Numbered from the stretch's first letter, positions 7,447-59,639 are shown. The stretch is 62,553 bases of DNA from Pseudomonadota bacterium (GCA_018242545.1 JAFEBT010000003.1:1-62553), one strand, 5' to 3'. The notes: a model not told the origin generated them from the sequence alone. Made by a program: numbers and translations.

Positions 7447-8021
7447 TTAAAATTTATCAATATCCATCGGAGCTTCAAATAAAAAAGCAGAAAGAGGCGT
7501 ATATTGTATCGTTAAAAGATGATGAGGATCTTCAGGAACAGCGCCTTCTATTTTAACCACTTTTCCTATAAAAGAGCCTTCATCATTTGGAGATACAAAA
7601 TTAAATCTTCCTCTTGCTTCCTCCTCAAGTCGTTCTCTTGGCACAGGCCCAAGCCCAGCAGGTGCCCGAGGTCCCCCTTCCTCAATAGCCCAATATGTAT
7701 GTGAAACTTCCGGGGAAACCTTAGAAAGAAAATGCTGCAAGAATTGCTGACTTGTTGCAGAAAAGAAAAGATCTAAAAATCCGTCTCTCACCTCACGCAT
7801 TGGCGTCAAAGTAATAGAAAAACGGCATCCAACTGGAAATTTCTTATTAGGATCCCAAGCTGCATCATTTTCTTTCGTATAGACTCGTTTTAAAGAAGGT
7901 CCATCTCTTGTTGTTTCATAAGTTACCCCTAATATATCATCTCTTGTTTTAACACCTTGAACAGCATTCAGGGAAAAGACCAAACATCCAAAAAATATAA
8001 TTAAAAAACACGTTTAAACAT
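7447..8021 (-). pseudogene. Terminal-gene paralogue T1 (178-aa ORF 7447-7983) with an out-of-frame signal-peptide start
   Basis: The intact ORF starts at TTG 7983. An ATG at 8019-8021 reads MFKRVF then TAA. One extra base in the A6/T6 run at 8003-8008 would give MFKRVFLIIFFGCLVFSLNAVQG, a signal peptide, in frame. Paralogue of 22574-23165. Confidence 0.6.
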
Positions 8022-8169
8022 TTCCAATCTCCGATAAAATTTATAATCTCTTTTTACCCTATAGAGCTTTTCTTCTCTTTTCAATGCAAAAACAAGTATG
8101 TAAGAGTTCATAACAAATGAGACAAAAATCTCAACGAGCTCAAAGAGAAGAAAGTTGAATATACTGCAA

Positions 8170-8400
8170 AGGGGGGAGATCTTTCAAGTTACGATGAGGT
8201 CTGTAAGAGTTATATTTTGATAAAGCTTTGCGCAGAGCGGATTCCATGCCTCTGACAGAATCCTCAAGAAGATCTGATCGATTAAAAATTCTTCTCAAAA
8301 AACTCTATTAGCGCGTTCAACACCCCTGTTATATTGAAGTTTTTTAGGAGTAAGAACAATAAAGGGAATAGAAAGCTCAGAATATGCAATCCTTTGATCT
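8170..8400 (-). mobile_element. Degraded remnant of an rve-type (DDE integrase) transposase C-terminus
   Basis: Minus-strand translation reads LTPKKLQYNRGVERANRVF*EEFLIDQIFLRILSEAWNPLCAKLYQNITLTDLIVT*KISP. This follows the P-x-x-x-Q-x-NGKVER-x-NR-x-x-x-EEF...W...YN...RPH pattern but has two in-frame stops. Confidence 0.5.
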
Positions 8401-8565
8401 GCATAAAAGGCCTCCAAAGTTAGGGTTTTAAGACATTCCTATCTTAGAGGCCTTTTTGATCATAGAAAAGAGGGATGATCGTCGCTACGGTGCTATTTAA
8501 TGCGCGCTCCGCTCATCCCTCTTTTGTCTCATATGTGTTTGAACTCGGACATTCTTTAAATACTG

Positions 8566-56386: not shown

Positions 56387-57668
56387 TCTCAAATGGATTC
56401 GTGAAAATAAAGATTTTTTTGATCAAGGGCTTCAACGTCGTGGGGTATCTTCCCAAAGTACACTTCTTTTAGAAATGGATGAGGCCTTACGTTCGCTCCA
56501 AACAGAAATTCAAACAATCAATGAACAGCGCAATGTTACAGCTCGTAAAATGGGAGAACTTAAGAAAAAAGGGGAAGATATAACAGCGCTTGTCCAAGAA
56601 GGCGCTCAGCTTAAAAACCTTCTCCCAGAACTTGAAGAAAAAGAAAGAACACTTCATCAACAAATTTTTAATATTCTTGCCTCTTTGCCAAACCTTCCAC
56701 AAGAAGATCTTCCGGTAGGCGATGAAACGGCCAATAAAGAAATAAAAAAAGAAGGGACCCCCCCCTCTTTTTCTTTTACACCCAAACAGCATTTTGAATT
56801 AGGTGAATCCCTTGGGCTTATGGATTTTGAGCAGGCTGCTTATATTTCGGGTGCGCGTTTTGTCATCCTAAAAGGGCCCTTAGCACATCTTGAACGTGCC
56901 CTTGCTTCTTTTATGTTAGATATCCATACACGAGAATTTGGATATCAGGAAGTTTCCCTTCCCCTTCTTGTTAAAGATGATGCTTTATTCGGAACGGGGA
57001 ATCTTCCTAAATTTTCAGAAGATCTTTTTAAAACAACAAGTGATCACTGGCTTATTCCAACAGCAGAAGTTCCTTTAACCAACATAGTTGCTCAAAAAAT
57101 CTTAGAAGAAAGTACTCTTCCTCTTCGCCTAACAGCTTACACACCCTGTTTTCGATTAGAAGCCGGATCTGCAGGCCGAGATACACGCGGCATGCTCCGT
57201 CAACATCAGTTTGGAAAGGTTGAATTGGTAAGTATTACAACGCCCTCTCAAGCTTCCGCCGAACACGAACGCATGCTCATGGCTGCTCAAACAGTTCTTA
57301 AGCGTCTTGAAATTCCCTATCGTGTTATGCTCCTTGCAACACAAGACATCAGTCCTGCCTCTCAAAAAACATACGATCTTGAAGCATGGCTTCCTGGCCA
57401 AAATTGTTACCGTGAAATCTCGAGCTGCTCTTTATGTGGCTCTTATCAAGCACGACGCATGAATGCACGATATCGTCCTCAAGATCCTCTTCATAAAAAA
57501 CCTCTTTTTGTTTCCACTCTTAATGGCTCGGGTATTGCGGTTGGACGCGCTCTTATTGCGCTTCTTGAAAACCATCAACAAGAAGATGGATCTATTCGCA
57601 TCCCTTTTGCTTTAAGTCCTTATCTTAACAACGCTGAAAAGATTACATCCCATGGTACTATTGAATAA
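56379..57668 (+). CDS. serS: Serine--tRNA ligase
   Basis: N-terminal coiled-coil arm and class II motifs (RFVILKG, FRLEAGSAGRDTRGMLRQHQF, GSGIAVGRALIALLE). Confidence 0.94.
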   Translation: MFDLKWIRENKDFFDQGLQRRGVSSQSTLLLEMDEALRSLQTEIQTINEQRNVTARKMGELKKKGEDITALVQEGAQLKNLLPELEEKERTLHQQIFNILASLPNLPQEDLPVGDETANKEIKKEGTPPSFSFTPKQHFELGESLGLMDFEQAAYISGARFVILKGPLAHLERALASFMLDIHTREFGYQEVSLPLLVKDDALFGTGNLPKFSEDLFKTTSDHWLIPTAEVPLTNIVAQKILEESTLPLRLTAYTPCFRLEAGSAGRDTRGMLRQHQFGKVELVSITTPSQASAEHERMLMAAQTVLKRLEIPYRVMLLATQDISPASQKTYDLEAWLPGQNCYREISSCSLCGSYQARRMNARYRPQDPLHKKPLFVSTLNGSGIAVGRALIALLENHQQEDGSIRIPFALSPYLNNAEKITSHGTIE

Positions 57669-58464
57669 AATTTCTGAGAATTATTCTCTTTCTTCTTTGC
57701 GCATCCTTGTTACTAATGATGATGGAATTCATGCGCCTGGACTTAAGATTCTTACAAAAATTGCGCGAACACTCTCAAATGATGTTTGGACTGTTGCACC
57801 CGAACAAGAGCAAAGTGGTGCAGGTCATTCTTTAACGCTTTCAAAACCTTTACGAATTCGAAAACTTGCAAATCGTCGTTATAGCGTTGATGGAACACCT
57901 ACAGATTGTGTGCTTTTAGCTGTAAAAAAAATTCTGCCCCGAAAAAAGCCAACGCTTATTCTTTCGGGTGTTAATTTTGGAGGAAATATAGGAGAAGATG
58001 CAACGTATTCAGGAACTGTTGCAGCTGCCATGGAAGGCATACTTCTTAACATCCCCTCAATTGCTCTGAGTCAAGTTGTCACACGAACAGAAACTCCTAA
58101 ATGGTCTACGGCACTACATTTTGCGCCCTCCATCATTAAACAACTTCTTGAAACCGGTTGGCCCCAACACATTTTGATCAATATTAATTTCCCAGATTTA
58201 ATTACATCCTCTGTAAAAGGAGTGCGTGTTGTTTCACAAGGGTTCCGACCTGCCGGTGTTGATCAAATCAGTGAAAATCTTGATCCAAGAGAAAGAGTCT
58301 ATTATTGGATTGGTCCTCAAGCTGATTTAAAAGAATTTCCATCAAATACAGACCTTGAAGCAATTTCTCAAGGGTATGTTTCTATTACGCCCATGGATGT
58401 TAATTTTACGCATAAGAAAACGCTTCCCATCCTTCAAACAGCTTTTGAGAAATTTAAGCTTTAA
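57652..58464 (+). CDS. surE: 5'/3'-nucleotidase SurE
   Basis: ILVTNDDGIHAPGL, GTPTDCV, SGVNFGGNIGEDATYSGTVAAAMEG. Confidence 0.93.
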   Translation: MVLLNKISENYSLSSLRILVTNDDGIHAPGLKILTKIARTLSNDVWTVAPEQEQSGAGHSLTLSKPLRIRKLANRRYSVDGTPTDCVLLAVKKILPRKKPTLILSGVNFGGNIGEDATYSGTVAAAMEGILLNIPSIALSQVVTRTETPKWSTALHFAPSIIKQLLETGWPQHILININFPDLITSSVKGVRVVSQGFRPAGVDQISENLDPRERVYYWIGPQADLKEFPSNTDLEAISQGYVSITPMDVNFTHKKTLPILQTAFEKFKL

Positions 58465-58713
58465 AGAATTTTTCTTTATGGTTTTTATAAAGGGCCGCGC
58501 GCAACTTCTTATCTTATATGGAATAAGAGGCCATTGGTCTAAACATATCCTCAAATTTTTTTAACACAAAAAATTTTTATAAAAAATGCTAAGAACTTGA
58601 CATTTTTTTATAATTCATCTCATGTATTGATTTCTCTAAATAAAAATTCTCGTCTAAAGATAAATTTTCATGACCATAATGAACCAAAGAACCATTTACT
58701 TTTTTTGAACATC

Positions 58714-59639
58714 ATGTTCCCTGTTTTTTTCTCCAGTTTTTCCTTACAGGCAGTTCCACCTGTCATTGAAGAAATTGTGCATCCAGAAAATCCTCAAAAA
58801 AAATGCTGTCCATTCAAGGAACAATCACAACAGAAAACTCTCGCATGGGGCTGAGAACAGTTGAGAAGAAAGACATTACAAACCCTGATGGCACCCCAGG
58901 ATTGGTCTCATTGGCTCGAATGAATGATGAAGATATGAAGTATGATCTTCCAAGTCTCTATGAAGCAGGAAAAACCAGTAAAACACACGATGAAACAATT
59001 CTTTCTTATGGACTTTGGAAGAATCGATTAGAAGGTCCCAAGTATGAAGTTACAGTGCTTTATGTTTTAGAAGATATTTTTGAACCTGCTCATCCAAGAT
59101 TTATGGGATATGTGATGATCCATCATAAATCCAAAGATGAATTGAAGCTCTTTTCGCATATTGTGAAACCTTATCAACGAAAAGGTGTTATGACGATACT
59201 TGGGCAATATCTTCTACATGAATTTTTCCCTACGCTTCTTGCGCATCCTTTAACACACGAAAAAGCTTCAAGCTATAAAACGCTTCACTATCAGCTTTTC
59301 TATCGTCTCCCTCCAAATATTGATGAAATTAACCGTGCTGTTGAAAGATTCGCAACAAGAGTTCAAATTCCAATTTCTCATTCAACACCGTTACGATGGT
59401 CTCTTGATCTTATCCATCTTCCTAAAAAAGAAAGAGCCCATTCAGCTGCTCCTCAAAGAGGCAATTTAACCCAACAAAAACCAACACCTCATCCTGTTGC
59501 GCTCGGGCCAATCACACGAGCACGTCATAACCTTCACTCTCAAAGCTCTCGCTTGAGCATAGAAGGCAATGTTTCTCAAGAGAAGAAACCGCCTATGAAA
59601 CGTTTACAACAACAGAGACGAAAATCAGCTTTTTTTTAA
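58714..59639 (+). pseudogene. Secreted GNAT-like protein, paralogue of 59866-60741, with its signal peptide frameshifted off at an A8 tract
   Basis: The ATG at 58714 gives MFPVFFSSFSLQAVPPVIEEIVHPENPQKK and then leaves frame. ORF 58803-59639 continues as MLSIQGTITTENSRMGLRTV... One extra A in the run 58796-58803 gives ...PQKKMLSIQG..., collinear with PQSKHRLSIHAEL in the paralogue. Confidence 0.65.

Follow-up and report, generated by a model that had tools for sequence, protein, structure and literature searches.

Are genes for secreted proteins that have lost their reading frame close to the 5' end dead, switched off, or intact in the organism and broken only in its assembly? The question is raised by a 62,553-nt contig from an uncultured alphaproteobacterium (GCA_018242545.1 JAFEBT010000003.1:1-62553, 36% GC; this whole stretch is referred to as the window), for which the original prediction listed five secreted-protein genes with a single lesion placed exactly between signal peptide and mature domain, four of them in homopolymers. 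After comparing these genes with paralogues and with orthologues from related genomes, we found that they are best read as young pseudogenes, that is, as products of a probable recent pseudogenisation which acted mainly by replication slippage at A/T runs, in redundant secreted-protein families that are lineage-specific and in which members are gained and lost. Early pseudogenisation was one of the three options originally put forward, and it is favoured by the intact orthologues of two of the genes, by repair with minimal edits, by untouched housekeeping genes and by the presence of later stages of decay. The origin of the lesions by replication slippage, their fixation in the population and the present non-function of the genes are what we infer from the sequence.

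All but one of the broken genes lie in a secreted-protein island (Table 1), which contains 16 paralogues (m1-m16, the m family), the small paralogous genes T1 and T2, a secreted RNase PH-domain protein and a broken AAA-ATPase_like/PDDEXK_9 gene (the AAA gene). The m paralogues are very divergent, with 14-21% identity to the reference member m4, and have signal peptides of the MKxxKITxxSLG type. The remaining gene lies outside the island and had been described as GNAT-like, a label which we keep only as a name, as it found no match in Pfam or NCBIfam and its lone PDB profile match was to a diamine acetyltransferase (E = 0.71). T1, T2 and the m family likewise had no match in Pfam or NCBIfam.

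The broken frames of the listed genes were confirmed at the nucleotide level. In T1 the ATG at 8019-8021 reads MFKRVF and then stop, and one extra T in the 6-nt run at 8003-8008 (T6 in the gene, A6 on the plus strand; codon 6-7) gives a single open reading frame (ORF) of 191 amino acids (aa). In T2 the ATG at 23163-23165 reads MKV and then stop, and a single ORF is obtained when one A is removed from ATGAAAG (23159-23165; codon 2); by alignment to T1 this lesion resembles an insertion of 4 nt behind the ATG. The body frame of m11 is open up to the 7-nt run at 24181-24187 (A7, codon 49), where one extra A gives a single 363-aa ORF reading ...AKEKKPLSF... across the junction. An in-frame TGA at 31596-31598 interrupts m16 at codon 27 (LAFAMER-stop-RGRDDS, with predicted cleavage between AFA and MER). 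TGA reassignment or recoding was considered here and rejected: 6 of the 49 genes end in TGA, including glyQ, tsaC, tatB and tatC, and the m16 TGA is therefore a nonsense codon. The leader and body of the GNAT-like gene are split by an A8 run at 58796-58803, and in this gene we found a second frameshift, in a T7 run at 58700-58706 within the signal peptide. The true start is the ATG at 58679, from which the N-terminus is MNQRTIYFFLNIMFPVFFSSFSLQA (MNQRTIYFF...) and the two lesions fall at about codons 8-9 and 42; each needs one added base, and the repaired protein reads ...ENPQKKMLSIQG... across the junction.

Two further broken genes had not been listed. In m15 the lesion is a 29-nt tandem duplication (27804-27832 and 27833-27861, units that differ by one base), and deletion of one unit gives a single 271-aa ORF. 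The AAA gene, which is not secreted, is frameshifted in an A9 run at 29972-29980 and at a CC site near 29560, both needing one added base. One or two frame-restoring edits are sufficient for a full ORF in all seven broken genes.

There are 334 runs of at least 6 bases in the window, so that a lesion in a run is unsurprising in itself. In secreted genes these runs number 9.3 per kb over the first 50 codons compared with 3.8 per kb elsewhere, a 2.4-fold difference which is due to the Phe/Leu/Ile-rich composition of signal peptides and the Lys-rich linkers, and which accounts for much of the clustering of lesions at the 5' end. Neither the exact placement of the lesions nor their uniformity held up in these data. 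T1 and T2 are hit inside the signal peptide, and m16, the A8 site of the GNAT-like gene and m11 are hit 3, about 17 and about 25 codons past the predicted cleavage site, giving a span from codon 2 (T2) to codon 49 (m11). Three of the five listed genes do have their lesion in a run of at least 6 bases, but that of T2 lies in a 3-nt run. It is correct that the listed genes are restored by minimal edits, but the GNAT-like gene has two lesions rather than one, and a single lesion in front of an intact body is, as a pattern, the result of the choice of cases, with m15, the AAA gene and three signal-peptide stubs omitted. The tidy pattern is thus partly a product of case selection and of the distribution of tracts, and the view that a repeated position uncouples export from cargo was overstated.

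Two orthologues bear on the ancestral state of these genes. The orthologue of the GNAT-like gene (P0025, 320 aa), which adjoins surE at the same position in the metagenome-assembled genome (MAG) 16-39-46, is colinear across both frameshift sites, with 99% of the repaired protein aligned at 49% identity. In GCA_002282095.1 the orthologue of m16 by position (P0017) adjoins pgm; its ORF is without interruption and encodes a signal peptide. As both of these orthologues are uninterrupted, the lesions of the GNAT-like gene and m16 are real departures from the ancestral ORF. We compared m11, m15 and m16 with the 13 intact paralogues, which represent the ancestral continuous ORF. T1 and T2, both broken, were compared with each other only: a search of 5.8 billion proteins and a scan of genome contigs gave no T1 homologue beyond the window's own protein. 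The bodies of T1 and T2 are 51% identical, with a ratio of nonsynonymous to synonymous substitution (dN/dS) of 0.49 and zero in-frame stops, the other frames containing 9-18, from which it follows that both were still coding in the recent past. These stop-free bodies, together with the repair of the broken genes by one or two edits, indicate that inactivation was recent. A structure model of T1 was unusable (predicted local distance difference test score, pLDDT, 36). It should also be noted that a G8 tract (C8 on the plus strand) is found at 23206-23213, in the 73-nt spacer between m11 and T2 and approximately 40 nt upstream of the T2 start; the window has just three G/C runs of at least 7 bases, this one included, and the region upstream of T1 has no equivalent.

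The orthologue of the GNAT-like gene also informs on the tracts. At the second site it has no A-run, reading CAA AGA ACA AGG where the window reads CAA AAA AAA (A)TG, and the A tract has therefore arisen recently through AT-biased substitution and is not a conserved device. At the first site a T-run is present in the orthologue only in so far as a Phe-Phe pair is conserved.

Could the genes be intact in the organism, with the five homopolymer frameshifts representing one-base under-calls made in sequencing or assembly? All five need one added base, and the true lengths of the affected tracts (7-10 nt) would be among the longest in the window, both of which would be expected of such an artefact. 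However, approximately 25 housekeeping genes (26.5 kb) contain 118 runs of at least 6 bases, including four of 9 nt and fifteen of 8 nt, none of which is frameshifted, and the lengths of their proteins match those of orthologues. Homopolymer lesions were thus found in 0 of 118 housekeeping runs versus 5 of 116 accessory-gene runs. The in-frame 9-nt runs in glyS (4178-4186) and tsaC (6035-6043), on which the original prediction based its case against blanket homopolymer error, are real and that argument is sound, but its strength is limited: applied to the homopolymer lesions only, it amounts to about P = 0.03, the probability that random errors would miss all of the housekeeping runs. In addition, many more errors would be expected of a long-read assembly left uncorrected, and the start of the contig in an IS630-like fragment suggests a short-read assembly break. 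Decay here is in any case real, artefact or not, as four further lesions in these classes of gene cannot be attributed to homopolymer errors, namely those of T2, m16 (nonsense codon) and m15 (duplication) and the one at the CC site of the AAA gene. We consider it improbable that under-calling explains the homopolymer lesions. Same-species sequence for the comparison of tract lengths was sought; exact-protein look-ups gave no match and the best hit in a metagenome scan with TsaC had 88% identity.

The clustering of small lesions within codons 1-50 of paralogues of secreted or surface type, with the tracts of T1, m11 and the GNAT-like gene at codons 6-49, is also what would be expected if the 5' A/T tracts were reversible on/off switches operated by slipped-strand mispairing, the broken copies being "off" states and not dead genes. 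In Neisseria opa, repeats in the leader-coding region form a contingency locus for phase variation. A poly-C tract in the 5' coding region of Gardnerella nanH3 is a further switch of this design in a secreted-protein gene (bioRxiv 10.1101/2020.09.16.300947). The window resembles these loci in having frameshifting tracts near the 5' end of exported-protein genes that belong to a multi-copy family. In-frame A/T runs of 6-8 bases are present in the 13 intact m paralogues and the RNase PH-domain gene, many of them within codons 1-50, and intact paralogues have in-frame 7-8-nt runs at sites similar to those that are broken (m2 codon 30, RNase PH-like codon 36, m13 codon 39 and m9 codon 13). The G8 tract just upstream of T2, of a kind that is rare in the genome, would also be compatible with switching.

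Unlike the tracts of contingency loci, those of the window are short (6-8 nt) and ordinary among its many runs. Runs of at least 7 bases in secreted genes are not enriched relative to a synonymous-codon shuffle (28 observed versus 23.8 expected, P = 0.13), the same holds for the first 50 codons (5 observed versus 3.8 expected, not significant), and the mild excess of runs of at least 6 bases is common to housekeeping genes. The A-tract at the second GNAT-like site is not conserved in the orthologue. The lesions of T2, m16 and m15 are not tract lesions and could not be reverted by slippage, and the GNAT-like gene would need two simultaneous reversions. Phase variation is for these reasons an unlikely account of the broken genes. 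A combined version, in which short 5' A/T tracts within the signal-peptide coding region or just behind it switch the export of single members of a lineage-specific secreted repertoire of approximately 20 genes and polymerase slippage gives leaky expression of the "off" copies at a low level, seems to us improbable. If it were true, the window would contain a system of contingency loci whose A/T tracts are unusually short, in a clade from which no such system has been described. Variable tract lengths would be needed for it to count as a new case of phase-variable export.

Slippage during expression might in itself keep the frameshifted genes partly functional, with some selection retained. 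Substantial transcriptional slippage is usually reported for tracts longer than 6-9 nt, the lengths found here. A -1 ribosomal slip could act at m11 (A_AAA_AAC), at the A8 site of the GNAT-like gene (A_AAA_AAA) and at the stop-abutting T runs of T1 and the first GNAT-like site, and the gene bodies are still fully open. The five tract lesions need one added base in the mRNA, and insertions predominate in transcriptional slippage at A/T runs in E. coli as well as Buchnera, although no frame-restoring events were found in Buchnera (PMC5574713). In this respect the window is like the poly(A/T) rescue by transcriptional slippage that has been proposed for endosymbionts and described for tssM of Citrobacter rodentium, in which A/T-run frameshifts are correctable by an inserted mRNA base (PMC4256274). 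In contrast to the documented cases of such rescue, the window has shorter tracts and a frameshifted arrangement that is not shared by orthologues (for the GNAT-like gene, the orthologue is one simple ORF). T2, m16 and m15 could not be rescued in this way. A downstream stimulatory RNA structure is also absent, with z-scores of -0.47 to +1.19, and we give leaky expression a low probability.

Programmed -1 frameshifting was examined as a candidate and rejected, as the fold z-scores against shuffled sequence were 0.00, 1.19, -0.06 and -0.47 and the orthologues of the GNAT-like gene and m16 are single ORFs. Slippery heptamers of the form X_XXY_YYZ are present in the zero frame at m11 and the GNAT-like site, which is trivial for any 7-8-nt run that has lost a base.

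Some of the observations weigh against recent pseudogenisation. The first is that the density of tracts may not account for all of the 5' clustering. The first 50 codons represent 16% of gene length and contain six of the seven small lesions of secreted genes, a nominally unlikely distribution that weighting by tract density and length largely explains. The inferred ancestral tracts (T7, A8, T8 and A9, with A10 in the AAA gene) would have been among the longest in the window, and if slippage rises 3- to 10-fold with each added base, a slip has a probability of 0.42-0.70 of hitting codons 1-50, and the probability of all four doing so is 0.03-0.24. With T2 and m16 added, and set against the mid-gene lesion of m15, the residual is roughly P = 0.002-0.02, for a test that was framed post hoc, on seven events, from the same data that suggested the pattern. 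This residual bias could be due to chance, to a lower cost of very early null mutations compared with exported truncated proteins, or to some switching. The second is that T1 and T2 were struck independently, each within the first 7 codons. The third is the uniform direction of the five homopolymer lesions, which fits both under-calling by a sequencer and the direction that is corrected by slippage of RNA polymerase.

Recent pseudogenisation would proceed in several steps. AT-biased substitution would build A/T runs, the longest of which in secreted genes would lie in the first 50 codons, within Phe/Leu/Ile-rich signal peptides and the Lys-rich linkers that follow them. Replication slippage would then drop one base from the longest runs (T7 to T6, A8 to A7, T8 to T7, A9 to A8 and A10 to A9), with further hits coming from ordinary substitutions, small insertions and tandem duplication. 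Selection would purge such mutations from housekeeping genes and not from redundant paralogues, and the broken genes would later be deleted, their 5' stubs remaining. In Buchnera, AT bias leads to long homopolymers, these to replication indels and these in turn to pseudogenes (PMC5574713). The window is like the gene erosion of Buchnera and Blochmannia in being AT-rich with many A/T runs, in that the first hits are one-base indels in the longest runs, in that dispensable genes are hit and housekeeping genes spared, and in containing a series from single-lesion genes to small remnants (PMC5574713). It differs in that its genome, at 36% GC, is not that of an extreme endosymbiont and still contains fragments of insertion sequences (IS), a toxin-antitoxin pair and a paralogue family that has expanded, and in that tract indels make up about half of the lesions. 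On this reading the process is of a known kind, seen in a new instance, and reveals no new mechanism.

Later stages of decay were found both in the island and in relatives. Three orphan stubs (Table 1) retain a promoter-like element and a signal peptide and nothing else. The original prediction had named disruption of the mature parts of orthologues as the mark of plain decay, and this was found in part, in the form of a deletion, a frameshift and truncations by IS or foreign DNA. Deletion has fused the m16 orthologue to the AAA gene in two independent metagenomes; in one further contig it is truncated by foreign DNA and in another a transposase cuts it off. An m1-like orthologue is frameshifted around residue 245, in the mature part and at a non-homopolymer site. 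The relatives with mature-part lesions are L083, L085, L086, L087 and P0022. An apparent 5' lesion in a further relative (P0019) was dismissed, as it merely reflects the choice of an internal Met as start by the gene caller; its T9 run is in frame and the gene is not broken. An apparently absent start in another relative's gene (P0018) was set aside, as this gene lies at a contig end.

A family gene in a relative (L132, 139-147) has an in-frame T9 run (AFFFITIAL) where its orthologue (L081, 1288-1296) reads CCC TTT TTT, and this T9 version is present in two independent assemblies. The change from CCC TTT TTT to TTT TTT TTT is a case of AT bias lengthening a signal-peptide tract without breaking the gene.

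If the genes are indeed young pseudogenes, the window would show clearly, at one moment, how gene families turn over in an alphaproteobacterial clade of which little is known, with approximately 20 lineage-specific secreted-protein genes of which roughly a third are at the stage of one or two lesions and others have been reduced to stubs. The broken genes should then be annotated as pseudogenes and not as leaderless truncated proteins, and the composition of signal peptides would make the 5' ends of secreted genes hotspots of slippage in AT-rich genomes.

Table 1 Position of the secreted-protein island, the broken genes, the remnants and their intact paralogues in the window.
Feature	Position	Strand	Remarks
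Secreted-protein island	infA (about 7.2 kb) to pgm (31.8 kb)	all -	24 kb
T1, small secreted-protein gene	7447..8021	-	191 aa when repaired, with signal peptide
13 intact m paralogues (m1-m10, m12-m14) and secreted RNase PH-domain protein	8566..27373	-	
Orphan signal-peptide stub	9591..9716	-	41 aa; upstream of m1
Orphan signal-peptide stub	22224..22340	-	38 aa; with conserved upstream element
T2, paralogue of T1	22574..23165	-	
m11, m-family member	23239..24329	-	363 aa when repaired
m15, m-family member	27440..28281	-	broken at about codon 150
Orphan stub	28405..28602	-	66 aa; signal peptide and ~40 aa of a deleted family member
AAA-ATPase_like + PDDEXK_9 (PD-(D/E)XK) gene	28777..30484	-	non-secreted; three ORF pieces
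m16, m-family member	30834..31676	-	
GNAT-like secreted-protein gene	58679..59639	+	320 aa when repaired from ATG 58679; two frameshifts
Intact paralogue of the GNAT-like gene	59866..60741	+	with signal peptide

The source alphaproteobacterium is AT-rich and probably host-associated. Its nearest public genomes are MAGs, namely "Alphaproteobacteria bacterium 16-39-46" and relatives, to which GlyQ is 91% identical at the protein level and the DNA about 75-80% identical. Gene order is kept in these relatives around glyQS-tsaC-maf-infA and pgm-ugd-galU. In a related species the interval from pgm to infA seemingly holds two family genes in about 3 kb (an estimate pieced together from two overlapping contigs of different samples, L081 and L083, that are 93% identical), compared with about 20 genes in 24 kb at 7177-31803 of the window, and the island therefore appears, on this comparison of gene content, to be a large lineage-specific expansion. 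An m11-like gene adjoins infA in a further relative (L001).

The m family itself was difficult to trace by similarity. A word-indexed profile search returned only proteins of the window, and an exhaustive HMMER search of 1.84 billion representative proteins found 8 convincing relatives outside it, with an additional weak match to a repeat protein (P0023). The AlphaFold model of m4 had a mean pLDDT of 67, and a fold search of the PDB gave no significant match (best E = 0.12).

In the middle of the island, the RNase PH-type protein (622 aa; 17888-19756, minus strand) contains two RNase PH domains, like the core of PNPase, behind an N-terminal signal peptide; the predicted export of such a protein is unusual. 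An AT-rich element of approximately 120 nt is repeated 5' of the orphan signal-peptide stubs (22324-22449 and 28598-28712) and is approximately 75% identical to an intergenic sequence between a family gene and infA in a relative (L081, 2362-2498), which suggests that it may be a conserved promoter or 5' untranslated region of the family.

Several further features were observed in the rest of the window. The contig opens (1-240) within the C-terminal part of an IS630-type (DDE) transposase, suggesting that the assembly broke at a repeat. Approximately 600 nt between galU and nth (35545-36152) are missing from the syntenic relative L082 and encode a 127-aa ORF (35679-36062, minus strand) with no family match. 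Near tRNA-Met there are two small paralogous signal-peptide proteins of 151 and 142 aa (41438-41893 and 42651-43079, plus strand), also with no family match. A ParE-family toxin (Pfam E = 6e-5) and an upstream small ORF that is likely its antitoxin lie at 50369-50852 (plus strand), with a further small ORF nearby at 51035-51301 (plus strand). Finally, the gene for a 519-aa protein without assigned function (46001-47560, minus strand) contains four 7-nt T runs in its first ~45 codons, all of them in frame, and is an intact example of the tract-dense 5' ends of this genome.

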